Assembly (NCBI GenBank): GCA_963722255.1 | Contig: CAVRJO010000002.1 | Coordinates: forward strand, 416,001-480,000 | Direction of reading: 5' to 3' | From: Candidatus Babeliales bacterium | GTDB taxonomy: Bacteria > Babelota > Babeliae > Babelales > JANWKD01 | Length of the DNA stretch: 64,000 bases | In this document: positions 3,001 to 49,341 of the stretch, one piece after another | How positions within the stretch are numbered: position 1 is the stretch's first letter | Layout: each line of letters opens with the position of its first letter | The notes under the pieces: generated by a model | Database searches by the model: none | Told to the model about the DNA's origin: nothing | Seen by the model: the letters and a program-made list of their open reading frames with translations, nothing else | Position numbers and translations under genes: made by a program

Positions 3001-3692
3001 CATGATCCTGTAGAAATAGCAGCAATAGCAGTAAATGTTCCATAGAAATCAGTGGTTATTGTTGTTTTGATATCATTCAGCGTGGTGTAAACACCGGAGA
3101 GATCACAAGTGCCTGCAACAATAGCTGCAATAGCAGTAAAAGTGCCATTAAAATCTGTAGTGATTGTTTGTTTGATATCAGCAAGAATTGAGAAGGTTTG
3201 CGCAAAATCGGCTAAAAGTTCATCACAGCAGTTTGATTGATTGTTACAACAATTAATGATAAGTAACTTAATGCTTTCTAAAAATTCTAATATTGGCGTT
3301 AAGTTACATGTTACTAGAGCTGAACCGACAGCTCCCGGACTATCAACTGGTGCATCAGGACGAGGTGCTTTTGAACTTTTAAGTTGCTCTTCTAAGCCCT
3401 GAATAAGTTCAGGAAATGCACAAATAAGATCTTCTTTAAAAACAGTTAATTCACCTTGTGCAAGTCTTTCATAGCATCGTATCAAATTTTCAGATACAGT
3501 GTTGATACTATTATTTGCTAATGCATTTGTAAGTATGCTTTCAAGGAAATCTATAAAGGTATCAGGTACGGTATACGTTTCATTATTTTCTAAAATTGTG
3601 CCTTGTTGAGCTGTTACTAGTAGGGGTTGTAGAAATAAGGTTATTAACAAAAAAATGTCTAATAACTTTTTTAGTTTTTTTAATAGCTTCAT
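3..3692 (-). CDS. Secreted Cys-Cys/FNGTFT-repeat fibre-like protein, paralog 1 (3' end runs off the window; at least 1230 aa)
   Basis: Absent from the ORF track because no stop lies in the window. ATG at 3692 gives MKLLKKLKKLLDIFLLITLFLQPLVVTAQ (signal-like), then RCYERL...KAPRPDAP...CCNNQSNCC, closely matching 15030. Codon phase at both ends agrees (last codons ...NDFNGTFTVLNEILLNQG). Confidence 0.9.
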   Translation of the reverse strand, partial: MKLLKKLKKLLDIFLLITLFLQPLLVTAQQGTILENNETYTVPDTFIDFLESILTNALANNSINTVSENLIRCYERLAQGELTVFKEDLICAFPELIQGLEEQLKSSKAPRPDAPVDSPGAVGSALVTCNLTPILEFLESIKLLIINCCNNQSNCCDELLADFAQTFSILADIKQTITTDFNGTFTAIAAIVAGTCDLSGVYTTLNDIKTTITTDFYGTFTAIAAISTGSCDLSGVYTTLHDLDTTLTTCCATIQNDFDFTWTILADIKQTITTDFNGTFTSIAAIVAGSCDLSGVYTTLHDLDTTLTTCSATIQNDFDFTWTILADIKTTITTDFNGTFTAIAAISTGSCDLSGVYSTLHDLDTTLTTCCATIQNDFDFTWTVLADIKQTITNDFNGTFTALNACCTNLSNDFANTWTILADIKQTVTNDFNGTFTAIAAINFSAVNTFTVLADIKQTITNDFNGTFTALNACCTNITNEFNGTFTALADIKQTITNDFNGTFTAIAAINLNAVNTFTVLADIKQTITNDFNGTFTALNACCTNLANDFANTWTILADIKQTITNDFNGTFTAIAAINFSAVNTFTVLADIKQTITNDFNGTFTVLNTILLNDTTAIFTVLNAGFLGTYTAIADLKQTITNDFNGIFTEFNGTFTAIAAINFSAVNTFTVLADIKQTITNDFNGTFTALNACCTNITNDFNGTFTAIAAINFSAVNTFTVLADIKQTITNDFNGTFTALNACCTNITNEFNGTFTALADIKQTITNDFNGTFTEFNGTFTAIAAINLTAVNTFTVLADIKQTITNEFNGTFTALADIKQTVTNDFNGTFTAIAAINLSAVNTFTVLADIKQTITNDFNGTFTALNACCTNITNEFNGTFTALADIKQTITNDFNETFTTIAAINLNAVNTFTVLADIKQTITNDFNGTFTALNACCTNITNEFNGTFTALADIKQTITNDFNGTFTEFNGTFTAIAAINLSAINTFTVLADIKQTITNEFNGTFTALNACCTNITNEFNGTFTALADIKQTITNDFNGTFTAIAAINLSAVNTFTVLADIKQTITNDFNGTFTAIDAINLTAVNTFTVLADIKQTITNDFNGTFTALNACCTNITNEFNGTFTALADIKQTITNDFNGTFTEFNGTFTAIAAISLTAVNTFTVLADIKQTITNDFNGTFTEFNGTFTAIAAINSTAVNTFTVLADIKQTITNDFNGTFTVLNEILLNQG
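30..3200 (-). repeat. Irregular tandem array of coding modules (18, 14 and 7 aa; 54/42/21 bp)
   Basis: Modules LADIKQTITNDFNGTFTA, LNACCTNITNEFNGTFTA, IAAIN(L/F)(S/T)AVNTFTV and EFNGTFT occur in shuffled order; copies differ mostly at third codon positions. Confidence 0.9.
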
Positions 3693-10238: not shown

Positions 10239-10565
10239 ATGGAAAATAAAAAATACTATTTTTTTGAAATAAATAAAAATATGATTAAAGAACAAGAAAC
10301 AATAATTCGTTTATTGGATGCTCTCTACCCCGGTGTAAAAATTTATCTGTTTGGTTCACGTGCTCGTGGTACAGCAAAACATTATTCAGATATTGATTTA
10401 GCAATCGATACCGGCAAAAAACTAAATTTTTTAGAAATTGCTAAAGCAAAAAATGTTATTGATGGTTTAAATATGGCTGTAACCACTGATATTGTTGATA
10501 TGAACTCTATTCCTGAAACGCTTCGTGCGACCATTCTTAAAGAAGGAATTGTATGGAAAAATTAA
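10239..10565 (+). CDS. Minimal nucleotidyltransferase (MNT) antitoxin
   Basis: LFGSRARG...SDIDLAID motif; overlaps the downstream HEPN gene. Confidence 0.9.
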   Translation: MENKKYYFFEINKNMIKEQETIIRLLDALYPGVKIYLFGSRARGTAKHYSDIDLAIDTGKKLNFLEIAKAKNVIDGLNMAVTTDIVDMNSIPETLRATILKEGIVWKN

Positions 10566-12894: not shown

Positions 12895-12909
12895 TACTCA
12901 CCTTTATCA

Positions 12910-14839
12910 TTATTGTAATCGAGTCCCATTAGGAACTGTTTTTTGAACAGAAATTAATTGTAAATTGCCTTGATCATCTTTAGCAGTCAAAATCATTCCT
13001 TGTGATTCTAAACCCATCATCATACGAGGTTTTAAGTTATACACAAAAACGGCCTGCTTTCCTATCAACTCTTCAGGCTGAAAAAAAGTTCGAATACCAC
13101 TTAATATTTGTCTCATACCACAATCACCAAAATTAACCTTTAAACGATATAACTTATCTGATTTTGGAATCGTACGGCACTCTTCAATTGCACCAACACG
13201 TAATTCAATTTTTGCAAAATCAGTAATATCAACCCCTTCTATTTCAATTGGCTTTTGTTCCATGATTTCTTCTTCTTTTCTTGGTTCAATTTTATTAAAT
13301 AAGTTTGGTATTTTTTGAATAGTAAAAGTATGATTCCACGTTTCGTGTTCTAAAAGTTCAACACAATCAATTGTTCCAAGATTATGCATGGCTCCAATGC
13401 TTAATAACATTTGTTCCATACTCTTGGGCATAATGGGCCATAAGAGAAGACCTACAGCACGCAGACTATGGCATATCGCTGAAATAACCTCTAAAAATTT
13501 GGTGCGATCTTTTTGTGCTAACTTCCAAGGTTCATGTGCATGAAAAAAAGCATTTGATTGTGCGATAAATTTCCATATTGCAGCTAATGCCATATGAATC
13601 GAATATTCATGCATATATTTTTTGACTTGAACAATCATTTGTTTTGCTTGTTCATGCAAAGCGATTCCGTCAGAAGACCATTCAACCGGATCCAAATTAA
13701 AAATTTGATTTTTTTCAGCAAGCGTTGTCATGCGATTCAACAAATTTCCAAGATCATTAGCTAAATCTGAGGTAATACGCTGTTCTAGATCATCCAACGA
13801 GAAATTAGAATCTTGACCTATCGAAAATTGTCTCATTAAATAATAACGAACCTGATCAACACCATATAATTCAGCCAATTGCTTTGGATCAACAACATTA
13901 TTTCGTGATTTAGACATCTTTTCATTATCAATTTTTATCCATCCATGTACTAGCAGTTGCTTTGGTAGCTCCAATCCTGATGCCATGAAAAATGCAGGCC
14001 AATAAACGGCATGAAATCGTACAATATCTTTACCCAAGATCTGAAGATCTGCAGGCCACCAATAATTAAACTCCTTTTGCCTCTCTTTTTGCCCATAGCC
14101 AATAGCCGTAATATAATTATTCAATGCATCTGCCCATACATAGGTAACATGCTTTTCACTGCCTGGAAAAGGAATTCCCCAGGTAATTGACGTACGCGAA
14201 ATACTCAAATCACGCAACCCAGATTTTACAAAATTGATTACTTCTTGCGTTCGTTCTTGAGGCACAATAAAATCAGGATTTTCTTCATAAAAATGCAATA
14301 AACGATCTTGATATGCCGACAATTTAAAAAAGTAGGATTCTTCAGAGAGAACAACTGTTGTCACGCAGCACATAAGGGACATAAAGGCTTTTTTATTTCC
14401 TGAACTTCTATATCAGTAACAAAAGCTTCACATGCGTACAATACCATCCTTCATAAAAAGCTTTATAAACATCACCTTAATCAATAATTTTTGTAGCCAT
14501 AATTGAACGGCTTTGATATGTTCAGTATCGGTCGTTCGTATAAAATGGCTATATTCTAAACGATATTCTGCCAAACTTCTTTATAAGCATCGAATAAAGC
14601 TGTCAACAAAATTCTTTGGCGCCATTGCCGCTTTTTGCTGCAGCTTGTGCAATTTTTTGGCCATGCTCATCAGTGCCTGTTAAAAAAAGATATTTGATCC
14701 CAATAAGCCTATTCCAACGGGCTAAAACATCTGCAAGAAAAGTCGAATAGAGTGAACCTAAATGAGGCTTAGCGGTAACATAATAAATTGGCGTGGTAAC
14801 ATAAAATTTTTTTTGATGGTTATTCATATTAGTTTTCAA
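12910..14839 (-). CDS. metG: Methionyl-tRNA synthetase with C-terminal tRNA-binding domain (frameshifts at 14380-14620)
   Basis: YVTTPIYY, PHLGS, TGTDEHGQKI, YVWADAL, GKDIVRFH, KMSKS, C-terminal OB fold (ESQGMIL). Confidence 0.95.
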
Positions 14840-15029: not shown

Positions 15030-18000
15030 ATGAAAGCATTCAAGCAATTAAAAAAATTGTCAAATATTGTTGTTCTAATTGCGCTATTCCTTCAACCTCT
15101 TGCTTTACCTGCGCAACATATTATTCAAAACAGCAATAACAACACCGTTGAAACCTGTACTGTACCTGATTCATTTCTCAATTTCCTAGAAAATATTATC
15201 ATCAAAGCTCTCGAAAACAATACCATCGATTCTCTTTCAGAAAATTTATTACGATGTTATGAAAGGCTACTACAAGGGGAATCAACAGTCCTCAAGGAAG
15301 ATCTCATCTGTGCATTTCCTGAGCTTATCAACGGTCTAGATGAACAACTTAAAAATTCAAAAGCTCCTCGTCCCGATGCGCCATTTGATACGGCAGGTGT
15401 TGTCGGTTCAGCTCTAGTAACATGTAACTTAACGCCAATATTAGAATTTTTAGAAAGCATTAAGCTGCTTATCATTAATTGTTGTAACAATCAAGCAAAC
15501 TGCTGTGCTGAACTTTTAGCCGATTTTGCAGGAACATTTTCGGTCCTTGCTGATATCAAACAAACCATTACGACAGACTTCAATGGAACGTTCACTGCTA
15601 TTGCTGCTCTTGTTGTAGCTGCTTGTGATCTTTCCGGTGTATTTACAACTCTCCATGATCTTGAAACCACCGTAACTACATGCTGTGCAAATATCCAAAA
15701 TGATTTTGATTTCACCTGGACTATTTTGGCAGATATTAAGCAAACAATCACCACTGATTTTAATGGCACCTTCACTGCAATTGCAGCAATCAATGTTGAT
15801 GCTAACAACACCTTCACGGTCCTTGCTGATATTAAAAACACTTTAACAACCTGCTGCGCTACTATTCAAGTTGATTTTAATGATACGTGGACTATTCTTG
15901 CAGATATTAAACAGACTATTACCAACGATTTTAACGGTACCTTCACGGTACTCAATACAATTCTACTTAATGAAACCTCCGGTACTTTCACTGCAATCAA
16001 TGCCGGATTCAATGGGACATTTACGGCTCTTGCAAATCTATTACTAACGGTTACTACCGATTTCAATGGTACTTTCACTGCGCTCAATGCTTGTTGCACT
16101 AACTTAACTAATGATTTTAACGGAACATTCACTGCACTTGCTGACATTAAACAGACTATTACCAATGACTTCAATAGTACGTTCACGCTATTGAATACAA
16201 TTCTACTTAATGAAAATAGTGGTACTTTCACTGCTATCAATGCCGGATTCAATGGAACATTTACGGCTCTTGCAAATCTATTACTAACGGTTACTACCGA
16301 TTTCAATGGTACTTTCACTGCGCTCAATGCTTGTTGCACTAACTTAACTAATGATTTTAACGGAACATTCACTGCGCTTGCTGATATTAAACAGACAATC
16401 ACCAATGATTTTAACGGTACCTTCACCGTTCTTAATACAATTCTACTTAATGAAACTGCTGGAACTTTCACTGCTATCAACGCCGGATTCAATGGAACAT
16501 TTACTGCACTTGCAAATCTATTACTAACGGTTACTACCGACTTCAATGGCACGTTCACTGCGCTCAATGCTTGTTGCACTAACATCACCAATGAATTCAA
16601 TGGAACATTTACAGCGCTTGCAGATATCAAACAAACAATAACCAACGATTTTAACGGTACCTTCACGGTATTGAATACCATATTACTTAATGAAAATAGT
16701 GGAACATTCACTGCTATCAATGCCGGATTCAATGGAACATTTACTGCTCTTGCAAATCTATTACTAACAGTTACTACCGACTTCAATGGCACCTTCACCG
16801 CGCTCAATGCTTGTTGCACTAATATTACTAATGAATTTAACGGCACATTCACTGCACTTGCTGACATTAAACAGACTATTACCAATGACTTCAATAGTAC
16901 GTTCACGCTATTGAATACAATTCTACTTAATGAAAATAGTGGTACTTTCACTGCAATCAATGCCGGATTCAATGGAACGTTTACGGCACTTGCAAATCTA
17001 TTACTAACGGTCACTACCGACTTCAATGGCACCTTCACCGCGCTCAATGCTTGTTGCACTAATATTACTAATGAATTTAATGGTACATTTACTGCACTTG
17101 CTGATATTAAACAAACCATCACCAACGATTTTAACGGCACTTTCACGGTATTGAATACGATATTACTTAATGAAAATAGTGGAACATTCACTGCAATCAA
17201 TGCCGGATTCAATGGAACATTTACGGCGCTTGCAAATCTATTATTAACGGTTACTACCGACTTCAATGGCACCTTCACCGCGCTCAATGCTTGTTGCACT
17301 AATATCACCAATGAATTCAATGGAACATTTACAGCGCTTGCAGATATCAAACAAACTATTACCAACGATTTTAACGGCACTTTCACGGTATTGAATACGA
17401 TATTACTTAATGAAAATAGTGGAACATTCACTGCAATCAATGCAGGATTCAATGGAACATTTACGGCGCTTGCAAATCTATTACTAACGGTTACTACCGA
17501 TTTCAATGGCACTTTCACTGCGCTCAATGCTTGTTGCACTAATATTACTAATGAATTTAATGGCACATTCACTGCACTTGCTGATATTAAGCAAACTATC
17601 ACCAATGATTTTAATGGCACCTTCACGGTATTGAATACGATATTACTTAATGAAAATAGTGGAACATTCACTGCAATCAATGCCGGATTCAATGGAACAT
17701 TTACGGCGCTTGCAAATCTATTACTAACGGTTACTACCGACTTCAACGGAACCTTCACCGCGCTCAATGCTTGTTGCACTAACTTAACTAATGATTTTAA
17801 CGGCACATTCACTGCACTTGCTGACATTAAACAGACTATTACCAATGACTTCAATAGTACGTTCACGCTATTGAATACAATTCTACTTAATGAAAATAGT
17901 GGTACTTTCACTGCAATCAATGCCGGATTCAATGGAACGTTTACGGCACTTGCAAATCTATTACTAACGGTCACTACCGACTTCAATGGCACCTTCACCG

Positions 18001-18659
18001 CGCTCAATGCTTGTTGCACTAACTTAACTAATGATTTTAACGGCACATTTACTGCACTTGCTGATATTAAACAAACCATCACCAACGATTTTAACGGCAC
18101 TTTCACAGTATTGAATACGATATTACTTAATGAAAATAGTGGAACATTTACTGCAATCAATGCCGGATTCAATGGAACGTTTACGGCGCTTGCAAATCTA
18201 TTACTAACGGTTACTACCGACTTCAACGGAACCTTCACCGCGCTCAATGCTTGTTGCACTAACTTAACTAATGATTTTAACGGCACATTCACTGCACTTG
18301 CTGACATCAAACAAACTATTACCAACGATTTTAACGGTACGTTCACAGTATTGAATACGATATTACTTAATGAAAATAGTGGAACATTTACTGCAATCAA
18401 TGCCGGATTCAATGGAACGTTTACGGCGCTTGCAAATCTATTACTAACGGTTACTACCGACTTCAACGGAACCTTCACCGCGCTCAATGCTTGTTGCACC
18501 AACTTAACTAATGATTTTAACGGCACATTCACCGCACTTGCTGATATTAAACAAACGATTACTACCGATTTTAATGGTACCTTCACTGCTCTTAATGCTA
18601 TAACTGCCGATACAGGTTTTGTTTCAGTATTTGGCGATCAAATTGTAGGAACCAGGTAA
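15030..18659 (+). CDS. Secreted FNGTFT-repeat fibre protein, paralog 2 (N-domain plus stalk)
   Basis: Signal-like N-terminus, KAPRPDAP motif, 11 copies of an 80-aa repeat; ends at an in-frame TAA just inside the head domain. Confidence 0.9.
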   Translation: MKAFKQLKKLSNIVVLIALFLQPLALPAQHIIQNSNNNTVETCTVPDSFLNFLENIIIKALENNTIDSLSENLLRCYERLLQGESTVLKEDLICAFPELINGLDEQLKNSKAPRPDAPFDTAGVVGSALVTCNLTPILEFLESIKLLIINCCNNQANCCAELLADFAGTFSVLADIKQTITTDFNGTFTAIAALVVAACDLSGVFTTLHDLETTVTTCCANIQNDFDFTWTILADIKQTITTDFNGTFTAIAAINVDANNTFTVLADIKNTLTTCCATIQVDFNDTWTILADIKQTITNDFNGTFTVLNTILLNETSGTFTAINAGFNGTFTALANLLLTVTTDFNGTFTALNACCTNLTNDFNGTFTALADIKQTITNDFNSTFTLLNTILLNENSGTFTAINAGFNGTFTALANLLLTVTTDFNGTFTALNACCTNLTNDFNGTFTALADIKQTITNDFNGTFTVLNTILLNETAGTFTAINAGFNGTFTALANLLLTVTTDFNGTFTALNACCTNITNEFNGTFTALADIKQTITNDFNGTFTVLNTILLNENSGTFTAINAGFNGTFTALANLLLTVTTDFNGTFTALNACCTNITNEFNGTFTALADIKQTITNDFNSTFTLLNTILLNENSGTFTAINAGFNGTFTALANLLLTVTTDFNGTFTALNACCTNITNEFNGTFTALADIKQTITNDFNGTFTVLNTILLNENSGTFTAINAGFNGTFTALANLLLTVTTDFNGTFTALNACCTNITNEFNGTFTALADIKQTITNDFNGTFTVLNTILLNENSGTFTAINAGFNGTFTALANLLLTVTTDFNGTFTALNACCTNITNEFNGTFTALADIKQTITNDFNGTFTVLNTILLNENSGTFTAINAGFNGTFTALANLLLTVTTDFNGTFTALNACCTNLTNDFNGTFTALADIKQTITNDFNSTFTLLNTILLNENSGTFTAINAGFNGTFTALANLLLTVTTDFNGTFTALNACCTNLTNDFNGTFTALADIKQTITNDFNGTFTVLNTILLNENSGTFTAINAGFNGTFTALANLLLTVTTDFNGTFTALNACCTNLTNDFNGTFTALADIKQTITNDFNGTFTVLNTILLNENSGTFTAINAGFNGTFTALANLLLTVTTDFNGTFTALNACCTNLTNDFNGTFTALADIKQTITTDFNGTFTALNAITADTGFVSVFGDQIVGTR
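15897..18590 (+). repeat. 240-bp (80-aa) tandem repeat, 11 full units plus a partial unit
   Basis: cttgc(a/t)ga(t/c)at... recurs every 240 bp (15897, 16137 ... 18537); each unit is 18+15+11+18+18 aa. Confidence 0.95.
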
Positions 18660-19775
18660 GATTATGTTAGCGTTCAATTTCAATATGGAGTATCATCATT
18701 TGATACAACGGCTTCCGTTCTAACCACCGGAACCGTACAATCATCTAACAGCCTAGCAGTAATCTCATCGGGGGTGGGACCAACCGGATTTGCACAGTTG
18801 CAAAGTAATCGTAATCTACGATATCGTCCAGGCCATGAAGGATCTGCATTCTTCACTGCTCAATTCTCGGGTGGCTCGGCAGCTAATTCAACACAGTGGA
18901 TTGGACTTTTTGATAATCTCAATGGCGCCGCAGTCGGATATACCGGAACCACATTCTCAATCCTTTTCAGACAAAATGGTGTTGATACCACAACCCCCCA
19001 AAGTTCATTTAACCGCGACAAACTTAATGGAACAGGCCCAAGCGGTTTTACAATCAACCCCCAAAATATAAATGTATTTAGAATTTCTTATGGTTGGCTA
19101 GGGGCCGCACCGATAAACTTTCAAGTAATTGATCAAAATGGTGAATGGATTACATTTCATCAACTTATATTCTCAAATACAATCCAGGGCTCAACTTTTT
19201 ACAACCCCACATTACCTATTACCGCACAAGTCCTAAAAACGGCGGGCACAACAAATTTAACAATCGGAACGGCATCCTGGAATGCAAGTCTTGTTGGAGA
19301 ACCATCAACGGCCGGCAGTAGATTTTTCGGAGCTTCAAGCGGGACCGTTGCAATATCATCGCCGGGAGTAGGACATTTGATGACAATTATAAATAATACA
19401 ACATTCAATGGAGTACCAAATAAAGTTGCCGTACGAATCTCCTTATTTACCGGAGGAACGGTAACAACTGCCAGCGAAACCTCAATTATTCAAATCTTAA
19501 CCGGCGCAACGGTAACGGGGCTTTCATTCACAAGCGTCAGTCCCAATTCAGTAGTCTCATTTTCTACCGTTGGAACCTATTCTGCAGGAACGGGGACACC
19601 TGTACTCATTATTCCCAATAATACTTTCGGTAGCGGTCCATTTGCACTCTTTTTACCTCAAACAGACATTTCAATTATTCTCCTGCCCGGACAAACTGCT
19701 ACCGTTACGGGGCAAAGTCTTTCCGGAGCCGGAACGACCGGTATTGCGACTCTTACATGGGAAGAGATGTTCTAA
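18660..19775 (+). CDS. Beta-rich head domain, in-frame continuation of 15030 after the TAA
   Basis: Same frame as 15030: ...GDQIVGTR*DYVSVQFQYGVSSFD... aligns with 21235 GDRIEEPRDDQISIQFQYGVSSFD. Confidence 0.85.
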   Translation, partial: DYVSVQFQYGVSSFDTTASVLTTGTVQSSNSLAVISSGVGPTGFAQLQSNRNLRYRPGHEGSAFFTAQFSGGSAANSTQWIGLFDNLNGAAVGYTGTTFSILFRQNGVDTTTPQSSFNRDKLNGTGPSGFTINPQNINVFRISYGWLGAAPINFQVIDQNGEWITFHQLIFSNTIQGSTFYNPTLPITAQVLKTAGTTNLTIGTASWNASLVGEPSTAGSRFFGASSGTVAISSPGVGHLMTIINNTTFNGVPNKVAVRISLFTGGTVTTASETSIIQILTGATVTGLSFTSVSPNSVVSFSTVGTYSAGTGTPVLIIPNNTFGSGPFALFLPQTDISIILLPGQTATVTGQSLSGAGTTGIATLTWEEMF

Positions 19776-19800
19776 AAAAAATAAGGAAGGAAAATAATTA

Positions 19801-21216
19801 ATGAACTTTTATAATAAAAAAACGAGTACTACAAGACTAATAATGATTCTAACAATCTTTATTATATCACCATGCATTATCAAACCAACATCACATCAAC
19901 ACTTTATCATACAAGATCAAAGCAATGCTATCGCAGAACTATCATCATTTGATAATCCAACATATATTGGTCAACAAACCACAATTACGCATCCAGGTGT
20001 TTATGCTTTAAATACCCCTATTGATTTTAATCCGACATCTTCAGGACAATCATTTATTACTATCGCATCAAATGATGTTATTCTAGACTTAAATAGAAAA
20101 ACGATACGCTTAGATGCTACAAATACTCAACCGAACATTATAGGTATCTTTGTACAACCAAATCTAAGAAATATCATTATTAGAAATGGAACCATCAGCA
20201 GCATGACATGGGATGGCATATATGTATCTGATGGCTGTAATCTTATCAATATAAATAATATAAGTATAAACGGGTCTACCGATGCCGGCATTAATATTGA
20301 TGGATTAAAAACAGGAACAGGTATCTCTAATGTCACGCTCAATGATATAGATATACAACAAATAAATGGCGCAGCCTCAAATGCCTACGGAATTTTATTA
20401 AAATATACTTTCATATGTAACCTAATTGAATGTATGGTCACCCAACTCAATACAAATTCCTCAAATTGTTACGGTATTAAAATTAAAAATTCTGATTCAG
20501 CTCAAATCAAATCATGCATAGTAAGTGAAAATAACTGTGGGGGTACTGTTAATATTGGCTATCAAATAATAAATTGTACTCCTTGTATCATTGAAGACTG
20601 CCTATCAGCAAACAATACCTGTACAGGCTCAAATCCGATATCAACAGCATATGGGTTCAGTCTTGAAAGGTCACAAAATCAATTGATGAATAACTGTTCA
20701 GCAATTTCAAATCAGTGTACTTATACAGCCTGTGGTATTCGTCTCTTTCAATCTGAAAGTTGCATCGTTAATAATTGTCAATCGCTTTCTAATACAAGTT
20801 CTTTATTAGATGCCATCGGTTTTATAGATGATACTGGATTTGGTAATGAATTCAACGAATGTATTGCAAATAATAACAACGGAAAAACAAATGGATTTGG
20901 ATTTTTACTTAATGCAATCAGCTCATCAGCAATAACCGACTGTGATATTAGGGCAAACTTAAGTACAACAGGAACTGCTTATGGAATTTCATTAACAACA
21001 ACAGTATGTACTATTGCAAATAATACCATTGTAGGCCATATCGGCAATGGGGGCTACGGTATATTTGATAGCGCCAACCTTGCGACCGGTAATGTTTATT
21101 ATGGAAACTACGCAATTAAAAACACTATTAATTATTCTCCTGGAAATCCGACAATTCCTGTTTTTGCCGGACCAGTAAGTGCAATCCCGGGACCTTTACA
21201 AAATATTTCACTCTAG
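19801..21216 (+). CDS. Secreted right-handed parallel beta-helix protein, Cys/Asn-rich
   Basis: ITHPGVYAL, ITIASNDVILDLNRKTI and repeated I..C....N...G.GF turns. Confidence 0.8.
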   Translation: MNFYNKKTSTTRLIMILTIFIISPCIIKPTSHQHFIIQDQSNAIAELSSFDNPTYIGQQTTITHPGVYALNTPIDFNPTSSGQSFITIASNDVILDLNRKTIRLDATNTQPNIIGIFVQPNLRNIIIRNGTISSMTWDGIYVSDGCNLININNISINGSTDAGINIDGLKTGTGISNVTLNDIDIQQINGAASNAYGILLKYTFICNLIECMVTQLNTNSSNCYGIKIKNSDSAQIKSCIVSENNCGGTVNIGYQIINCTPCIIEDCLSANNTCTGSNPISTAYGFSLERSQNQLMNNCSAISNQCTYTACGIRLFQSESCIVNNCQSLSNTSSLLDAIGFIDDTGFGNEFNECIANNNNGKTNGFGFLLNAISSSAITDCDIRANLSTTGTAYGISLTTTVCTIANNTIVGHIGNGGYGIFDSANLATGNVYYGNYAIKNTINYSPGNPTIPVFAGPVSAIPGPLQNISL

Positions 21217-21234
21217 CAATTTAAAGGTAAATAC

Positions 21235-22494
21235 ATGAATTCCAGAGAAATCTTTTTGATAGTTCTTATATCAATAATAGTTCATCAAACTATGCAACCC
21301 ATACAAAATGTAAATGAGGGATTTATCTCAGTTTTTGGCGATCGAATTGAAGAACCCAGAGATGATCAAATCAGTATCCAATTTCAATACGGAGTTTCAA
21401 GCTTTGATGTAACAACTTCAGTAATTTCAACGGGAACAATTCAATCATCAAATTCACTTGCCGTTGTTGCATCAGGTACAAATACAACATCCTTTGCACA
21501 AATACAAACTATTGATATTCTTCCTTATCAACCCGGACACGAAAGCTACTGTTTTTTTACCGCAGGGTTTCCCGGTGGTTCAGCAGCAAATTCAACGCAA
21601 TGGATTGGATTATTTAATACAACTGACGGTGTTGCTGTTGGCTACAATAATACTACCTTTTCAATTCTATATCTCAACAATAGCGTTTCCACAATAATCC
21701 CACAAAGTTCATTTAATGGAGACACCCTCAATGGCAGTGGCCCCAGTGGATTTACCCTTAATCCCGCCAATATAAATGTCTTTAGAATTGTGTATGGATG
21801 GCTTGGAGCAGCGCCCATACTTTTTCAAATTGTAGATCAAAATGGTACTTGGATAACCTTTCACACCATTATTCGTTCAAATCTTACACAAGGTCCTTCC
21901 TTTAGCAACCCGGAACTCCAAATAACCTCTCAAGTTAACAAAGTAGGATCAACAACGGCAAACCTTTCAATTGTCTCAGCAAGTTGGAATGCCGGCAATG
22001 AAGTAAGTCTTGATCCTTCACCAAGTCAACGTTATTTTTCCGCCAATAATTCTAGCAACCCGACACTCAATGCCACAGGCATAGAAACACATATACTCAC
22101 TATTCAAAACAAACCGACGTTTCAAGGATTCACCAATAAAATCCATGCAACTATTACGTTTTTTAATGGAGGAGGCACCTCCGTAAATAGTCTAACATCA
22201 CTTATCCAATTACGCAGCAATGCAACCGTTACAGGGCTTTCTTTTTCCAACGTTAATACCGCAAACTCCATTATGCAATTTAGCACAGCCGGCACCTATG
22301 TTGCAGGAACAGGCACTCTTATACTTATTGTTCCCAATAATACTTTTGGTAGCGGACCTTGGAATCTTTTACAATTTCAAGGAAATCTAGAAATTATACT
22401 TTACCCCGGTCAATCGCTCACCATAACGGGAATAAGTTTATCAGGAGCCGGCAATACGGTAACGGCTAGTATTGGATGGCTTGAACAATTTTAA
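21235..22494 (+). CDS. Stand-alone secreted paralog of the fibre head domain
   Basis: Signal-like N-terminus then colinear similarity to 18600-19775 (GGSAANSTQWIGLF, GPSGFT.NP.NINVFRI.YGWLGAAPI, PNNTFGSGP, W.E.F end). Confidence 0.88.
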   Translation: MNSREIFLIVLISIIVHQTMQPIQNVNEGFISVFGDRIEEPRDDQISIQFQYGVSSFDVTTSVISTGTIQSSNSLAVVASGTNTTSFAQIQTIDILPYQPGHESYCFFTAGFPGGSAANSTQWIGLFNTTDGVAVGYNNTTFSILYLNNSVSTIIPQSSFNGDTLNGSGPSGFTLNPANINVFRIVYGWLGAAPILFQIVDQNGTWITFHTIIRSNLTQGPSFSNPELQITSQVNKVGSTTANLSIVSASWNAGNEVSLDPSPSQRYFSANNSSNPTLNATGIETHILTIQNKPTFQGFTNKIHATITFFNGGGTSVNSLTSLIQLRSNATVTGLSFSNVNTANSIMQFSTAGTYVAGTGTLILIVPNNTFGSGPWNLLQFQGNLEIILYPGQSLTITGISLSGAGNTVTASIGWLEQF

Positions 22495-22504
22495 ATCAAA
22501 CAGA

Positions 22505-22528
22505 AAGAGGCGCTCGAAAGCGCCTCTT
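22505..22528. terminator. Hairpin between convergent operons (likely bidirectional terminator)
   Basis: aagaggcgct-cgaa-agcgcctctt, followed by attttt. Confidence 0.8.
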
Positions 22529-22553
22529 ATTTTTGATGTTTACTAATCTATTA

Positions 22554-24095
22554 TTAATAACCTGACAATTGTCCAAGTCTTATATAAATAGATTTAAGCC
22601 ATTGAATTACATCAAAGGTAGTTGTTGACAAGGTATCAATAGACGAAGGCAAATCATCCCATGGATTATTTGGCGGGAATGGAGGTGTATTTGGTGGATT
22701 ATCTGCTAAATTACCAAGAACATCGCATGCACAGCTGGTTAGCGTCACAAATACTTCATTTATTGAAGTATAAACACCAGTTAGATCACAAGACCCAGCA
22801 ACGATAGCTGCAATAGCAGTAAATGTGCCATTGAAATCGGTGGTAATAGTTTGGTTAATATCCGCTAATGTAGTGTAAACGCCGTTTAAATCACAGGCAG
22901 ATATTACAATTGCTGCCAGTGTTGTAAACGTACCATTGAAATCGGTTGTAATAGTTTGGTTAATATCCGCTAATGTAGTGTAAACACCGCTTAAATCACA
23001 GGCAGATATTACAATTGCTGCCAGTGTTGTAAACGTACCATTGAAATCTGTGGTAATAGTTTGCTTAATATCCGCTAATATTGTCCACGTATCGTTAAAA
23101 TCAACTTGAATTTTTGCACAACACGTTGTCAATGTTGATTCAATGTCAAACAAGGTAGTGAAGGTGCTATCAAAATTAACTACAATATTTGAACAACATG
23201 CAGTTAAGGTGTCATTAATATTTACTACTACGGTGAATGACTCAGTAATCGATGCTATTGCAGTAAATACACCGTTAAAATCAACTTGAATGTCAGCACA
23301 ACAAGTGGTCAACGAATTTCTAATATCTGTTAATGATGTGAAGGTTCCTTCAAAATTAACTTCAATATCCGCGCAACATGTTGTTAAGGTATTTTTAACA
23401 TCTGATATTGCGGTAAAAATACTATTGAAATCCATATCAATTGCAGCTATAGAAGTAAATACTCCATTAAAATCGACTTGGATATCAGCACAACAGGTTG
23501 TTAATGATGATTTAATATCTGCAAGAATTGTCCATGTAAAAGCGAAATCTTGTTGAAGAATAGAGCAACATTGCGTTACAATCATTGTCAAACGATTAAG
23601 CAGTTGAAGAACTTCATTAAAATTACATTCAAGAACAGTTCCAACAGGCGCACCATCGGTATTTCCCGGTGCATCAGGGCGTGGTGCTCTTTCAGTCTTC
23701 ATCATCTGCGTTAACTTCTCAACAACTACAGGCAATGCTATAGCCAAATCTTGAACGTGTAATGATTTTGCACCATTTTCAAGTTGTTCATAACATCGTA
23801 AAACACCCATAGGAAGTTCATGCAATGTATGAGTTTCAAGTGCGCTTTCAATAACTATTCTTAAGAGCTCATCAAGTCGCAATCCCATCAAACTTTCCGG
23901 CGTAATAAGCATTTGCATATTATTGTCTTTAACTTCTTGTGCTAAAGACGCCATACACATCTCATCCATTTCACACTGCATTGCTGCAGGACGAGCTAGC
24001 TGTTTGTTAAAAATATGCATGGGTGTAAGTAAAACCCCAAGCGCGAGTAATGCGCTCAGGATTTTGCAATGACTTCTCTTGTGCCATTTATTCAT
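22554..24095 (-). CDS. FNGTFT-repeat fibre family paralog 3 (short stalk, different C-terminus)
   Basis: Signal peptide, RCYEQL...RAPRPDAP, LTTCC..IQVDFNG and LADIKQTITTDFNGTFT repeats, Pro-rich linker and terminal amphipathic helix DVIQWLKSIY. Confidence 0.88.
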   Translation of the reverse strand: MNKWHKRSHCKILSALLALGVLLTPMHIFNKQLARPAAMQCEMDEMCMASLAQEVKDNNMQMLITPESLMGLRLDELLRIVIESALETHTLHELPMGVLRCYEQLENGAKSLHVQDLAIALPVVVEKLTQMMKTERAPRPDAPGNTDGAPVGTVLECNFNEVLQLLNRLTMIVTQCCSILQQDFAFTWTILADIKSSLTTCCADIQVDFNGVFTSIAAIDMDFNSIFTAISDVKNTLTTCCADIEVNFEGTFTSLTDIRNSLTTCCADIQVDFNGVFTAIASITESFTVVVNINDTLTACCSNIVVNFDSTFTTLFDIESTLTTCCAKIQVDFNDTWTILADIKQTITTDFNGTFTTLAAIVISACDLSGVYTTLADINQTITTDFNGTFTTLAAIVISACDLNGVYTTLADINQTITTDFNGTFTAIAAIVAGSCDLTGVYTSINEVFVTLTSCACDVLGNLADNPPNTPPFPPNNPWDDLPSSIDTLSTTTFDVIQWLKSIYIRLGQLSGY

Positions 24096-24121
24096 ATACT
24101 AATTCCCTTCATCTACGACCA

Positions 24122-25956
24122 TTAAAAGTTAACAACCAGGCCTAAATACCAATCGGTATCATTAAGCGCATTCTGGCCCGCAAAGGTGTGTTCCCAACCT
24201 GCAAATATTTGCCAATTGCAGCATTGTTTGAAGATTTCAGCCTTAACGGTGTGTGCTATACGTTTTGTTCTTGATTCTAATAAGCATGGATTCAGTGGTT
24301 GTGTTACCCCAAAGAAATCTTTAGCAGTAGTCACATCAAAGCTTACATGATCTTTACGTTTAACCCATGCTTGATAACCAACATCAAAGCCGATGTAATC
24401 ACAAGCGCATGGGACTAAGAACGTGAAATCAATATCACCTATAAAATATTGCCATGAAACATCACCGCAAATTCCAGGTCCGATATTTGCAATGGTAGCG
24501 CCGACAAATGGTGCACTTAATGTTTCTCTGTGACGCAATGCCCAGTAGTACCATGCATCTGCTTTAACTGCGAACCATTCACATGGCTGCCAACCTAAGT
24601 ATCCACCAACTTTTATTTCATAGTGGTGATTGTTTCCGATCGGTGATAATAAAAGTTGACTGGTTGTAGAAGTTCTTGTATCAGTTGGAAAGCGCACACC
24701 AAATATAGCTTCTGCAAACCATGCTCCATCACAAAGACAACCATCATAACGAGCGTAAAATTCGGTATCAAAGTTACCAATACCATTGTTACGCGCTGTA
24801 TCAAAGGTTATGCCATTTGCAAGAAGAAAATCAACGGGAGAAAGACCATTATTAATGCTATGGAATTGAAGAAGTTGCTTGAGACGTATCTTGCAATTTG
24901 ACAAACAGCGTCAACAAGCTCTAATGAAGCTGCATCCGATCCTGCCGTTGGAACTTCGATCATTATTGCGGGGCAACCAATAGTTTCTTTGAACTGCAGG
25001 GCTCAAACCTATACCAGCAGCATAATCAACACCGGTACCAAATACAAATTTACTTCCAGTTCCAGAACCAGCACCACTAGCCGGTAAGGCTGGTAAGTTG
25101 CGACCGTTGGTTGCGGTAAAGCAAATGGTGGTGTTGGTTGTGAACCACCATCACTTTCAATGAGATAAGCTGGTGTTTGCGCAGGTACAACATTTGATAC
25201 ATCAGCTCCATTAATACGTGTATCACCATTTGGAGCAGGGTTTGCTGTCCCATCACCATAAACAACTAATGCACTTGGAATAAATGGAGCACTTCCTGAT
25301 TGTTGCATCAAACAAAGCAGACGCGAGATCTAAACGAATTGCAAACACATCAGAACCGTTTGTTCTTGACCAACCGGAACCGGATCGCATGTTGGACAGC
25401 TTCAACGTTCATTATCAAGTACAAATAGATCAACGATACTTTCTTCTAAAGCACAACATGAATCAAGCGCCATCTTTATAGAACGGAAAGGAACACGTGC
25501 ACGGAATCCAAGACCCCATTGCTCTTCACACCCAACACGCGTTTCAAGATTAGCACCAAAAATTGCCATCTCTTCATTATAATCAAACGTAGGGGTAAGT
25601 GCTAAAATACCAAGCAAAGGATCTGAAGGAACTGGCAATGGCGTGCTTGAAGAAAACGAGTTTGCTACGGTAAATGATGGTGCACCAAAGAAAAGCGCTG
25701 CCAATGTTTCTTTTGTCGTAGAATCCTTACAGGTAAATGCGCTATTTGCATTTTTATGTAAGCCAGCTCCCCAAATATCTACATAAAGCCATTTGCATTC
25801 ATCTTTACAATCTTCATAATCAGCCCGCGCAAAGGGATAGTGGTTAAATGCATAACCGCGTTCAAGCGATTCAGGTGTCACAAACACCCGTGCTGTCACA
25901 TTGGAAAATCCAACGAAACTGAGCACCGCAAGAATCTTGAGATTTCGTTTATTCAT
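24122..25956 (-). CDS. Putative outer-membrane beta-barrel protein, Cys-rich (frameshifted into several ORFs)
   Basis: Signal peptide at 25956, amphipathic beta strands, C-terminal YLGLVVNF; ORFs 25402, 25009 and 24122 read as one gene. Confidence 0.65.
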
Positions 25957-25996
25957 ATTGCTCCTTTTTAAACGACATTTTTTTCATTATATTCTA

Positions 25997-26024
25997 AGGC
26001 CATAGACAAATAAATCTATGGCCT
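25997..26024. terminator. Intergenic hairpin after the giant protein gene
   Basis: aggccataga ... tctatggcct, 10-bp stem. Confidence 0.5.
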
Positions 26025-26036
26025 ATAAAAGTTATA

Positions 26037-29000
26037 TTAAAATTCGCCTGTTCCTTGAATTTCATCAGCGCGAACAATTTGGAATGAAACAGGATCAACA
26101 TCAAGACTGACTGCCCCAATTTGTAATGAATGTAAATCATTGACAACATTATTACCTGAAGTACCATAAATTACTGGCAACACATCACGTCTAATTGTTG
26201 TACCAACAACAAATCCAAGATTATCAATATTCAATGCATTATTACCAATATTTGCTTTTGGTGAAAGTTGAGAAAAATTATCGATTGTATTTAAGTAATT
26301 AAACAATGCTTGTGGCGTAAGTCCTGCAGCCCCTAATGGTTGTGCGGTTTAGCACGATCTTGCAATAGAAGCTTACCTGACATAATACCAGATTGAATAA
26401 ATCCACCTGGTTGAACACCGGCAAATGTAGTCACTGTAGGAACAATCTGAAATTGGAATTATTTGACCATCACATCAAGTTCGGTACAGTTTACTTTGAC
26501 CATGTTGCCACCACCAAGAATTGCTGAAGTAGCGGAATTGAAGATAAATGAATAGCTACCTTCAGAACCAATTGCAAGCAATGATGCTTCTTCAATGCTA
26601 CCAGATGCAATTTGATTATGGTAGAATGTTCCACCCGGTAGTTGTACCAATTCCAAGAGGCCCACCAATAATAAGTGAACAGGTTGTCACATTGCTAAGA
26701 CAACTAACTAACCAATTGATTTGGTAGCTTGCTGCGCAGTTTGTTGAACAATACCAACACTTAAACCAAAGAAGCCATGTCGATTAATTTCAAACAATGC
26801 ACCTTGACCGGCAAGCTCTAATAGCAATGATATCGATTGTGATGTACTTGTAACGACCGTATCACCAATTTGGAATGCACCACCAGGTAATGCATCAGTA
26901 CCAATTTGAATTGATGCTTGGTCATTCAATACCCAAACAAGATTGGTTATCCAATGAACAACGTTGGAAATGTTTCAACACCAAAGTATGCATTAGCCGG
27001 AATAAACATTGATGAATCTTCAATCATGTTTATAATACCGGTACCACTCAATTTAACACGAACACTATCGGTACTATTAACATTTACAGCCGGTAATGCT
27101 TCAACTTGCGTATCAAACTCAGGTTCCATGTACCATTGCGCTTGACCGCTTAAGATAAAGGTACCGCCATTCATAATAATGCGAGCACCCGGTTCGCAAA
27201 CAAGTTTAACTTGACCGGTAATTTCAAATATTTTGAAGGGGTAGTAAATTGTGAAAGATCAAGAACACCGGTTGATTTAATACGAAGTTCTTTTGGTGTG
27301 GTTGAACTAATTGCAAGAAGTAGGCCACCATTTGCTTAAATGCCGTACCACTTAAAATATGGCATACGTTGTTAATAATAACATCTTCATTCAATTCAAT
27401 GTTACCATTACCATTTGGAACAAGCATCACACCGTTAATACCAAGAACAATAGATGCTTCAAGTGAATCAACATCTTTGTGTGCTGAACCTAACCCAACA
27501 AGACCATCATTTTGCAATACTAAGAACGCTGTAGGAGCTTGTGCTGAGTTATTACCTTGCAAGAAGACTAACTCACGAACAAATCCGCCATCAACTAACA
27601 AGTGAGCAGTATCACAAATGCGTGAACGCAAGATTTGCAATTGATCAACTTCACCTTGAATTGTCGGTAAGTTCACCAGATTGTTTTGTGTTACTGCAGG
27701 ACATGCGCATGGTGCCGGAACTTCTTCAGTATCATACGGAATAAAGCATGTTGGTGTAATAAATAAATCATTACAACAGAATGTTTTCTTAGCAGCACCC
27801 CAATCAAAGCTAAAATCAGAAAGTTGTTGACCTGGAGCAACAAGAATACGTTGTGCAGGATCTGAAAGAAGCGGTTGCCATTCTGTTATACCAATAGTTG
27901 GTTCAAAGAATGTTTGATTACTTGGTAAATTAACAATACCACCGCGGCTTTTGGTTACCATTGCACCAAAGCTTGCAATACGATTATTAATAAGACTCAA
28001 AGAACCAAGTGCATCAACAAATATTCCGCCTTCTCCCGTAACGCCAGATTCTTGTGGTAATGCAATTGTGCCACCACGAGTTTCAAATGAATAGCATGAA
28101 CCATCGATGATAACGTTTGCAGGTATTGTTAAGGGGAATGTAGCACCGAATCTATCAATTCCAACGGCACCATCAGTACCGATTGAAAAGTTACTTGCAT
28201 TATTCAAGAAGATTGTTTGAACATCATTTTGTCCGGTAATTGCTGCGATACTTGGTATACCTTGCGTAATACAGCTATCGTTATACGCAGTAAGCAAACT
28301 AACAGTGATATCAAATCCTGCTGTTTGTGCGTTTATTTGGAATACGTTAAGATGTGAATTTCCATCAGCACCTATATCACAGTTTTCAAAACAGTCATCG
28401 GTTCCTAAGATCCAATTGCGACCATAGCCATTATCGATGCAACGTCCATTGCTATAGAAAATAATAGCACTATCATTGTCACCATCCGGATCATTAGGGA
28501 ATAAGAAATCAACACCGGTTGAACAAATGTTTGAGTGTACACGCAACTTAGAATCGATTAACTCTATTGTTGGGCGAGGTCTACCTGCATGGCAGGGAAA
28601 TAAGTAACTATCACTACCAATGTAGGTTGGTTGTGATGAAAGATTAGGATTACCTAAATTCCAATGCTCATAAACTTTGTGAATCGTGTCAGTGTGAATC
28701 AAAGAAGTATTGTTCAAAGTCATGATATTGTTTATTAAGAAACAACCAAGATTGTATTGAATATAATCGCCATTTGGCTGACGATTAAAGGTTCTCTTTG
28801 GAAAGTTTGGAGCAGCAATAGAATCTATGGTAACAGGACATCCCGTTGGATCTACTTGTAATGATAAAATATTAATACCAGTTTCATCTGGGCTTGAACC
28901 AAAAATATCAAGCGGACCTTCAACATCTAAAAGAATATTTCCAGCGCAGGTACTTAATACTGAAGTATTGACCGTAAAGTCCGGCGATACGCTTCCACAA

Positions 29001-30304
29001 TTATCAACACCTGAAAGGAAGTAGATTGCTGAAGAGCCAACTAAATTAATTGTTGCCGGTGAAAAATCATCAGGCGCATCAACGATAAACGCTGAACCAT
29101 TTCTTAAACGTTCTAATGGTTCAAGAATGCCACATGCATCAGGCAATGTGAAATCACAACAAACGTTTGTTGTTGTACCAATATATGCAATATATGTTTC
29201 ATTTCCAACGGTAATAACACCTGTAGGACCTGTTAACACAAACCCCGAAACAACGCCACCAGGAAAAGTATTAATCACCGGAATACAGAAAGGATTAATT
29301 AACAATCCTTCATCAGGACACAAACTATTATTATTGATAATTTCTAGAGCAGATCCTGTTCCAAAACCGGATAAATTTGTAGTAACAAAATTTGCAGAAG
29401 CACCTGATTGAGCACCAAAATCAATATCACTAATCATAAAATTTGGTAATGTTAAATCAGCCGGATGACCGATAATATTTACACCACCACCATTTTGGAT
29501 AATAAGTTGCAATGATGAAGTTACCGCATTAGCCTTAGATTGGAAATTAAGTTCTGCAGTTGCAGTGGCATCACCAGTTTGTGCAGCAAATGTAATTAAG
29601 GAGCCGGGTCCAACAATTACTTGAGCAGGTAATCCCGTAGTAGCAACCAATGAATTTGCAAATGCAACAAATGGGCTATTTATTGTAGACATTCCTTCAA
29701 CAAAGAATGTTCCACCACTGCCGGCATCTTTAGCAGTAAAGCTTACGGATTGTCCATCACCAAGAGTAAATAGTATAGTTCCACCACCTGATGCAGTTAC
29801 GAGTAAATCAAGAGGAGTTGCTCCATTTGCAGAACCACTAAATATCAAATCGTTTGTGAGATTAAAATTAATAGTTCTACCGGCAGCTGCAAAAAGATAA
29901 AGGCGTGCAGGGGCTGCAGGGGTACCATTACATAGATTCCCCGAACCGGTAATAATTGCATCACCATTAGTAACGGAAATAGTTATATCGCAATTTATTG
30001 AAGATACATTAATTCCTCCAACAAGTGCGTTTGTACCAATAACATCAATATTTTGGTCAACAACACTATTCACTACACCTGGATTAGTCTGCCCGGCGCC
30101 ACATCCGGTATCACTCAGATTATGCCAGTTTACCGTAGTTCCACATGGTGAAAATGCTAATGGTGCAGCTACAGCAGCTATAGGGCCAACACCTTGATGA
30201 TTTGGTTTTCCGAATTTAGTCATACCTAATAATTCGGGTGCAGCCAAACCAAGGCCCACCATAAAAATTAGGCTAAAACTATTCAAGAGAAATTTTTTTC
30301 TCAT
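26037..30304 (-). CDS. Giant secreted Cys/Gly/Asn-rich beta-structured surface protein (about 1400 aa; 3' part frameshifted)
   Basis: MRKKFLL... signal at 30304; a 1000-aa ORF followed by same-strand fragments 26947, 26708, 26459 and 26037 of the same composition. Confidence 0.7.
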
Positions 30305-49332: not shown

Positions 49333-49341
49333 TTGTTTATT

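Follow-up and report, generated by a model that had tools for sequence, protein, structure and literature searches.

Mosaic adhesive trimer (MAT) fibres have been described on the surface of the predator Bdellovibrio bacteriovorus, each with a signal peptide, a conserved and beta-rich N-domain of ~130 amino acids (aa) without a known fold relative, a long trimeric shaft of beta-prisms or beta-helices, and a tip of TNF-like, C-type-lectin or other fold (PMC10769870). They are the closest analogue among described systems to a fibre family encoded in the DNA analyzed here, a stretch of 64,000 nucleotides (nt; hereafter the window) from a Candidatus Babeliales bacterium (assembly GCA_963722255.1, contig CAVRJO010000002.1, positions 416,001 to 480,000). 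Two gene sets lie next to each other in the window: fibres with a shared N-domain, a predicted coiled-coil stalk and exchangeable C-terminal tips (15030-24095 and 3-3692), and a giant exported protein followed by a putative outer-membrane barrel (24122-30304). We consider it reasonably probable that these are two unrelated modules which happen to be located side by side.

Dependentiae, to which this genome belongs, are widespread obligate parasites of protists, and we know of no described mechanism for their host recognition and entry. The first module would be a Dependentiae-restricted family of Sec-exported fibres, in which the N-domain probably holds the fibre at the cell envelope and the stalk would be a three-stranded alpha-helical coiled coil, parallel and in register, whose length varies among the fibres and whose chains could be locked by Cys-Cys doublets. 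The far end would carry an exchangeable tip of one of three kinds: a right-handed beta-helix, such a helix joined to a propeller, or a lectin-like head that is also found in structural proteins of phages and giant viruses. These tips would bind, and in some cases may cut, glycans of the protist host, and the fibres would be used for attachment or uptake, a role that can be likened to that of phage tail fibres and MAT fibres. The second module, found almost throughout the order, would consist of a giant exported beta-rich protein and, behind it, a 12-stranded barrel of the FapF/COG4313 type that exports or anchors it.

Arrangement of the locus

The genes are organized in two convergent units, with a fibre, a beta-helix protein and a free head on the plus strand and the giant protein, the barrel and a short fibre on the minus strand. 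A further fibre is located at the left edge of the window.

3..3692, minus strand: fibre D, N-domain and stalk; extends left beyond the window, 1899 aa in total
15030..18656, plus strand: fibre A, leader, N-domain (~15156-15542) and predicted coiled-coil stalk
18657..18659, plus strand: in-frame TAA at the junction of fibre A stalk and head; Phe in the same-genus orthologue
18660..19775, plus strand: head A, two-domain and lectin-like, phrog_1645 type, 371 aa
19801..21216, plus strand: free-standing right-handed beta-helix protein, 471 aa, with its own leader
21235..22494, plus strand: free head B, 419 aa, with its own N-terminal hydrophobic helix; the copy used for the structure model
22505..22528, no strand: terminator-like two-way hairpin between the convergent units
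22554..24095, minus strand: fibre C, 513 aa, with leader, N-domain, short stalk and a headless C-terminal tail of ~50 aa
24122..25956, minus strand: putative outer-membrane barrel, broken; orthologue 605 aa, predicted to be 12-stranded and FapF/COG4313-like
26037 (approximate)..30304, minus strand: giant exported protein, 3' third broken; orthologue 1471 aa

The hairpin lies in the 59-nt gap between the two units and has a 10-bp stem with T-runs on both strands. The fibre cluster (15030-24095) is located between a heparinase-like gene with the methionyl-tRNA synthetase (MetRS) gene at 10977-14839 on one side and the barrel, which begins at 25956, on the other.

An initial annotation, made from the sequence alone, had described this locus as one candidate for an undescribed surface-fibre system, and as an observation it is largely right. 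The genes occur where it had placed them, in the two convergent units, and all listed products have leader-like N-termini, judged by eye as a basic stretch followed by a hydrophobic stretch. The third fibre paralogue it had reported at 3-3692 is real, with an N-domain 72% identical to that of fibre A. The gene set is thus confirmed in its positions but not in its intactness, since fibre A carries the in-frame TAA and breaks occur in the barrel gene as well as in the 3'-terminal third of the giant gene.

Comparison with described fibres

Like the MAT fibres, the family occurs in multiple copies in a bacterium that must enter other cells. In outline, the two resemble each other in their order of leader, conserved N-domain (~125 aa here, ~130 aa in MAT) and long trimeric fibre, which is modelled here, followed by swappable C-terminal tips with phage-like or lectin-type folds. 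For neither N-domain is a structural relative known. The shafts differ, as those of MAT fibres are intertwined beta-prisms or beta-helices, whereas an alpha-helical period and a modelled coiled coil were obtained here. No S74 protease or chaperone domain was detected in the Pfam scans of this family, and the host is a protist here while it is a bacterium for Bdellovibrio. The hydrophobic pattern of the N-domain gave no beta-type period, a weak result that is set against the MAT domain by description only.

With phage tail fibres and receptor-binding proteins, the family has in common a homologous head (phrog_1645), the fold of 9n6a, and the combination of a stalk and a distal binding tip. In contrast to them, the genes are chromosomal, encode leaders and a bacterial N-domain, and have no virion genes nearby. 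YadA-type trimeric autotransporters also combine a trimeric coiled-coil stalk of variable, repeat-built length with a binding head, but the polarity is reversed here, with a conserved N-terminus and a C-terminal head. A YadA-type C-terminal anchor was absent in the Pfam scans of all fibres scanned, whose C-termini are heads, beta-helices or a short tail. This agrees with the earlier description, which had seen no YadA anchor, pilin or collagen signature, and neither Pfam nor NCBIfam provided a name for the fibres.

Literature searches on Dependentiae and Babeliales surface, adhesin and secreted proteins returned no title or abstract in which these proteins are described. Compared with the systems above, a mosaic trimeric adhesin-like fibre with a coiled-coil shaft would be new, while the head family (in viruses) and the MAT-type plan were already known.

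Conserved N-terminus and predicted stalk of the fibres

When 26 N-terminal regions, taken from five genomes, were aligned, a conserved domain of ~125 aa was delimited, which follows the leader and a variable linker and carries the motifs LLxCYExL, DLxxAxPEL, (K/R)APRP, IVG and CC. Its profile matched 169 of 1.84 billion cluster representatives at a threshold of E <= 0.001, nearly always at residues 40-200 of proteins of 100-2,900 aa. The domain has no sequence relative in the PDB. It was present in 14 of the 201 genomes sampled for a survey of relatives that covered 120 genera, and the genome of the window has at least eight copies at no fewer than five loci. A shared N-domain with differing stalk lengths and interchangeable C-termini, restricted to this lineage, had been proposed from the window, and the survey bears this out.

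Two further loci of this family were observed. At G000:C1:104636-112367 (locus L039, 3636-11367), four short fibres of 688, 611, 577 and 677 aa, measured from stop to stop, are arranged in tandem, and three of their four C-terminal pieces have a Beta_helix match, as if variants of the fibre had been amplified locally. A fibre paralogue in locus L046 (G004:C6:267000-268300) carries an eight-fold repeat of the 'NNQQPTT' type at the position of the spacer from leader to N-domain, which may be a flexible or glycosylated spacer.

The open reading frame (ORF) of fibre A (15030-18659) encodes 1209 aa with an N-terminal hydrophobic leader. Its stalk region contains a 240-nt tandem array of 11.2 copies with 90% matching (15897-18586). 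A 906-aa ORF on the minus strand at 15866-18586 is a shadow of this repeat array and was rejected as a gene. The hydrophobic period of the stalk was 3.64 in fibre A (power 22.7, compared with a maximum of 3.24 in 50 shuffles), 3.54 in fibre C and 3.58 in fibre D, and the stalk is therefore predicted to be alpha-helical and not beta. Pfam matches in the stalks were to Baculo_PEP_C, HAMP_2, ATG17-like and STAT coil, all of which are coiled-coil families. As Baculo_PEP_C is listed among the families prone to convergent coiled-coil matches (PMC3695513), we read these matches as a reflection of composition and not of homology. The stalks are also rich in cysteine, as had been noted before, with 15, 6 and 13 Cys-Cys doublets in fibre A, fibre C and the window part of fibre D, respectively.

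The multimer prediction that the initial annotation had suggested gave a supported trimer model for the stalk. Three copies of fibre C residues 36-250 (alignment A5) scored 0.67, while the best of three controls scored 0.00. In the calibration, 20 of 30 proteins whose solved structures are pairs attained this mark, compared with 1 of 23 whose solved structures are single chains, although these counts come from two-copy runs with own alignments and are only roughly valid for a three-copy run. Contact agreement in the trimer runs was at least 46%, with a partner predicted local distance difference test (pLDDT) score of at least 61. The predicted contacts were parallel and in register (198-198, 226-226), with a spacing of 3-4 residues, and stretched over residues 157-248. 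At the textbook rise of ~0.15 nm per residue, a coiled coil of 300-1200 residues would be ~45-180 nm long.

Tip modules

The fused head A and the free head B are 58% identical. Both matched phrog_1645, a 'virion structural protein' family, at profile positions 67-440 of 440 (E 1.4e-34 for A and 9.6e-38 for B). Relatives were found by tblastn in 145 phage records, most of them cyanophages, with 22-32% identity among the 25 records listed, and identity to phage proteins ranged from 22 to 39% overall when the viral contigs are included with the phage records. In the viral contigs, 557 of 601 pattern-matching stretches encode a head relative. At the sequence level the head has no PDB relative, and a cluster look-up of 10 head relatives returned no names.

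The model of head B (pLDDT 78.0, predicted template-modelling score (pTM) 0.52) consists of two beta domains. The first of these (~residues 45-258) was assigned to the concanavalin-A-like lectin/glucanase fold, with VIA Z of 13.2-16.0, root-mean-square deviation (rmsd) of 2.6-3.7 and 165-198 residues aligned. In the PDB, Foldseek ranked 9n6a first, which is the receptor-binding domain of gp23 from phage TM4, with legume and L-type lectins next. Matches in BFVD (E 1.9e-30 to 1.8e-10) came from tailed phages, haloarchaeal tailed viruses and giant viruses, the latter being Bodo saltans virus, a mimivirus, a Pyramimonas virus and a pithovirus. With a full-length phrog_1645 match and this fold, the heads are not new.

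GH16 glucanases are as similar to the first domain as lectins (Z 15-16). No acidic residue or catalytic-type motif was found among the invariant columns of 52 heads, with no dedicated GH16 motif scan, and because of the missing invariant acidic residue we favour binding over catalysis for the head.

The free-standing beta-helix protein (19801-21216) matched NosD with 25.9 bits, above the cut-off of 23.6 bits, and the Pfam family Beta_helix with 23.3 bits, slightly under its cut-off. The same modules also occur at the ends of other fibres. Among the C-terminal pieces of the paralogues in the genome of the window (n = 8), Beta_helix was found in six, a WD40-type propeller in two, and no match in one. 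Fibre D is the paralogue with both, as its full length of 1899 aa terminates in a beta-helix and a WD40-like propeller. Of 150 representatives of the N-domain family, 43 carry a beta-helix like the free protein of the window and 3 carry a head, and a 1036-aa fibre of the same-genus genome G001 ends in a beta-helix as well. The beta-helix is the commonest tip and the head a minority tip. Since the same modules terminate other fibres, the free beta-helix and free head genes of the window are thus stand-alone versions of tips.

The head was detected in 18 of the 201 genomes and 15 of the 120 genera, a patchy distribution. Of the 18 genomes with a head, 14 have at least two copies located near each other, and the same applies to all eight loci with head relatives in public genomes, which were found with 27 closer head sequences and all come from metagenome-assembled genomes. 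The pairs often consist of one stalk-fused and one free copy with its own leader, and this recurs in distant families. The arrangement could reflect mixed assemblies, or a free copy that acts as a helper.

The viral affinity of the head raises the possibility that fibre, beta-helix and head genes are leftover tail-fibre or tailspike genes without a cellular role. The membership in phrog_1645, which is abundant in viral contigs, the phage-like layout of fibre, tailspike and tip, and the patchy spread of the head over 15 of 120 genera, which fits horizontal transfer, are in line with such an origin. However, every one of these genes encodes a leader peptide, and tail fibres have none. The eight or more copies of the N-domain are spread over at least five loci, and the domain is found almost only at the N-terminus of such proteins. 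The pair of fused and free heads recurs in distant families, and a scan of 56 neighbouring ORFs revealed no capsid, terminase, portal or tail genes; the sole finds were a small Gp49-like protein and a transposase of the IS630 family, 15-20 kb away. We therefore regard a viral remnant as very improbable.

Alternatively, the proteins could be released factors that degrade glycans or act on the host, with beta-helix tips as lyases or hydrolases and a stalk that only oligomerizes. The commonest tip (43 of 150) does belong to a fold family of the pectate-lyase type, the first head domain resembles GH16 enzymes as much as lectins, and a heparinase-like gene is located nearby. On the other hand, none of the invariant columns in the 52 heads is acidic, the WD40-like propeller tips are binding modules and not enzymes, and a conserved N-domain with stalks of 300-1200 aa is hard to explain for a soluble enzyme. 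This explanation appears unlikely, and envelope-held adhesin-like fibres remain the preferred reading of the first module.

As such, the mosaic fibres with tips shared with phages and giant viruses are concrete candidates for host-range determinants. The head is an example of receptor-binding modules that move between viruses and cellular parasites of the same hosts.

Giant protein and barrel

As the copies of the window are broken and public reads have no coverage there, the barrel and the giant protein were characterized with the intact orthologues of G001, which is 99% complete compared with 93% for the genome of the window. The barrel orthologue was modelled with a pLDDT of 82.8 and a pTM of 0.76. 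It superposed on the COG4313 channel 4rl8_A with a VIA Z of 24.9 (rmsd 2.3, 264 of 267 residues aligned) and on FapF 5o65_A with a Z of 23.8 (256 residues aligned), and Foldseek agreed with VIA (E 2.7e-9). A putative outer-membrane barrel had been noted before, and a 12-stranded fold is indeed what the model shows. Autotransporter barrels matched the same model at Z 16.7-18.2, and CdiB at Z 9.1. Because autotransporter barrels match too, the modelled fold alone does not fix the function. An insert of ~170 aa separates the two halves of the barrel, as read from the strand list of the model.

At the sequence level, the barrel matched no Pfam family at E <= 0.05 and no relevant PDB sequence at E <= 1. 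The giant protein had no Pfam, NCBIfam or PDB sequence match, and the NCBIfam scan yielded only noise below the cut-off. In the protein Atlas, both fell into unnamed clusters, with a weak Phenol_MetA_deg lead of 0.95 for the barrel (PF13557 on 24% of the members of one cluster) and weak Pectate_lyase_5 and Chlam_PMP leads for the giant protein. A comparison of the giant alignment with the beta-helix protein showed no relation (hhalign probability 0.14). Conservation in the giant protein is centred on residues ~860-1250 and the ~130 residues at its C-terminus. No invariant Cys column was found in the alignments of the barrel and the giant protein.

The two genes travel together. In a closer set of 41 relatives, used for the co-occurrence of giant, barrel and N-domain, giant and barrel were each found in 27 genomes, with both in 26, neither in 13 and only one in two. 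The latter are G002, which is 64% complete and has the giant only, and G023, which is split into 140 contigs and has the barrel only. In 23 of the 26 genomes with both, the genes lie within 3 kb on the same strand, and the remaining three are fragmented assemblies with matches on different contigs. From the 23, 20 loci were fetched, and in all of them the giant gene (1,334-1,952 aa) is directly upstream of one or two barrels (576-651 aa). Giant protein and barrel each have their own leader there, and most barrels terminate in an aromatic residue. In the wider survey, 169 of 201 genomes, from 107 of 120 genera and a single order, had a match to the barrel profile. Judged by gene order and fold, with a barrel of the 12-stranded, polypeptide-exporting kind always following a giant exported protein, the two would form a pair dedicated to export or anchoring.

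The barrel superposes on FapF and COG4313, and like fapF its gene is in an operon with a presumed cargo. It differs in being twice as long (~600 aa), in the ~170-aa insert, and in the lack of a sequence-level match, and its neighbour is a 1,334-1,952-aa protein and not an amyloid subunit. Type Va autotransporters are one polypeptide, whereas giant and barrel are separate genes with leaders of their own in all 20 loci. Unlike in two-partner secretion (TpsA/TpsB), the barrel has no POTRA or ShlB match, and its best folds are 12-stranded barrels. An analogy with the Cys-rich chlamydial envelope and a mention of infectious particles, both made in the initial annotation, apply only loosely, as the genome belongs to Dependentiae/Babeliales and none of 18 giant orthologues matched the chlamydial Pmp, OmcB or MOMP Pfam families at E <= 0.1.

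Taken further, Dependentiae would draw their swappable surface tips from a pool in common with phages and giant viruses of protists and carry them on a coiled-coil fibre of their own, the tips would determine by which protist the bacterium is taken up, and the giant-barrel pair would be an undescribed export or anchoring device. This joint proposal is speculative, and we hold it to be conceivable but doubtful. The same tentative standing applies to its part on the device, according to which it would be a 'split autotransporter' or a FapF-like channel for a coat protein of 1,334-1,952 aa. Since the barrel is present in 169 of 201 genomes and neither it nor the giant protein has a Pfam or NCBIfam name, studies of the cell envelope in this phylum could profitably start from this pair.

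Gene order and distribution

In G003 and G014, the genes occur in the order potD-like, giant, barrel, MetRS and heparinase-like gene, and in G032, G026 and G013 the barrel is followed by MetRS. The window has the same neighbours (potABCD-giant-barrel ... MetRS-heparinase), with the fibre cluster inserted between MetRS and barrel. Because the fibre cluster sits inside this conserved order, a single four-part system is not supported.

The initial annotation had favoured such an integrated envelope system, in which the fibres depend on the barrel for export or anchoring and on the giant protein as a disulfide-linked scaffold. All parts are adjacent in G000 and G001, the barrel has the fold of the polypeptide exporter FapF (Z 23.8), and all parts are fairly rich in cysteine (2.2-4.3%). 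All eight N-domain-positive genomes among the 41 relatives also have barrel and giant; however, the eight come from three related families and are not independent. The distributions are about tenfold apart, with the barrel in 169, the N-domain in 14 and the head in 18 of the 201 genomes. With 12-13 N-domain matches each, G003 and G004 still show no full fibre next to the barrel, which is followed by MetRS according to Pfam in G003 and, in G004, by two unscanned ORFs that match MetRS and the heparinase-like gene by size only. At least four head-bearing genomes (G009, G017, G067 and G083) lack a barrel match, and none of the eight head loci of other genomes has a barrel or giant gene within 10 kb. 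A disulfide-linked scaffold also finds no counterpart in the barrel and giant alignments, where no Cys column is invariant. An integrated system is accordingly improbable in our view. Of the synteny that had been expected, the co-occurrence of giant and barrel holds (adjacent in 23 of 26), while that of the fibres with barrel and giant does not; these two form their own pair and are not specific partners of the fibres.

Several observations weigh against two separate modules, or against parts of the fibre reading. In G000, G020 and G037, the gene directly behind the barrel, in the same orientation, is a fibre or N-domain gene, and in G032, G069, G092 and G178 an N-domain gene lies within ~3 kb of the barrel, all of which would also fit an integrated system; in G024 a beta-helix gene follows the barrel. 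Insertions may be frequent at the site behind the barrel, or else the barrel may have one short fibre as a true partner. A fibre led by its N-terminus would, from its sequence, need a route across the outer membrane. The pLDDT of the trimer was only moderate (62-64), the N-domain lies outside the confident interface of the model, and a coiled coil can pass the trimer test by general likeness to solved coiled coils. As for the tips, the beta-helix protein had no tblastn match in phage records, and an enzymatic role of the head is unlikely from its conserved columns. Finally, fibre A, barrel and giant are interrupted in the window and may perhaps not be produced in this strain. With these points included, two unrelated modules side by side are still the explanation we hold to be probable.

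The order potABCD-giant-barrel-MetRS-heparinase II/III-like was observed to recur in distant families (loci L017 and L022; window 10977-14839 and 30591-34459). An exported heparinase-like protein is kept beside MetRS in this arrangement.

Interrupted reading frames

Stalk and head of fibre A form one frame, interrupted by the single TAA at 18657-18659, and the same-genus orthologue is a single open frame of 1513 aa with no stop. In the barrel gene the frame shifts near 25099 and is interrupted by stops at 25402 (TGA), 25330 (TAG) and 24911 (TGA). The first ~990 aa of the giant gene are intact (30304-27338), and its last third has at least four frameshifts, stops at 26708, 26687, 26333 and 26291, and ~84 missing orthologue residues. 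In sum, at least 13 stops or frameshifts are spread over the barrel gene and this last third of the giant gene.

Breaks were also detected in other genes of the window. Lon (5143-8287) has an in-frame TAA at 5758-5760, MetRS (12913-14839) a frameshift, PotA (33323-34459) three frame changes, and BamA (36229-39162) a TAG and two TAA inside 12 codons near 36616-36651, and the heparinase-like gene is broken as well. In G001, giant (1471 aa), barrel (605 aa), BamA (934 aa) and MetRS (640 aa) are single open frames and PotA is intact too; Lon was left out of this comparison.

A reassignment of TAA, considered for the stops in fibre A and Lon, was rejected, as the broken genes carry TAA, TAG, TGA and frameshifts; it is also contradicted by the head ORF of fibre A, which itself terminates in TAA. 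Sequencing error of the homopolymer type was rejected as well, since no homopolymer run was present at the six frame-switch sites inspected. Among public reads, one run contained part of the stretch (word share 0.08, no RNA run) and covered no break site. The 10 contigs of this run, with lengths of 135-265 nt among those shown, include nothing between 23738 and 28877. Genome-wide statistics of ORF coverage were uninformative on assembly quality.

The breaks in housekeeping genes point to patchy consensus errors in the assembly. Because essential genes are also hit and the G001 counterparts that were checked are intact, assembly error is favoured over real decay as the cause of the breaks, with decay retaining a considerable share of our expectation.

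Other genes of the window

Two zinc-finger types otherwise typical of eukaryotes were seen: two MYND fingers (E 8.9e-19) in a protein of 448 aa encoded at 50065-51411, and C2H2 fingers in a protein encoded at 52532-53290. Both proteins are possible host-directed effectors.

Mobile and toxin-antitoxin-like elements comprise an IS630-family transposase at 42533-43434, which is split into helix-turn-helix and DDE parts in two overlapping frames, a nucleotidyltransferase with a substrate-binding partner at 10218-10984 (MNT/HEPN type), and a Gp49-like protein beside a small ORF at 39398-40115.

With regard to host recognition and entry, the genome paper of one cultured member of the Dependentiae mentions only type IV pili and 'surface antigens of unknown function', and it reports no lipopolysaccharide synthesis genes for that member (PMC6561590). 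In the window, a prepilin peptidase is encoded at 49305-50075 and a protein with an N-terminal methylation motif, as in type IV pilins, at 55663-56247. An interplay of MAT fibres with type IV pili is raised as a possibility in the description of the Bdellovibrio fibres (PMC10769870).

At 59096-60079, just after an ATP-synthase a subunit, an ORF of ~321 aa has two stretches of c-subunit type. The better match covers residues 261-324 of the frame scanned, which measures 328 aa from stop to stop. The ORF is far longer than an ordinary c subunit and may reflect fusion or duplication of the subunit, or an erroneous joining of frames.

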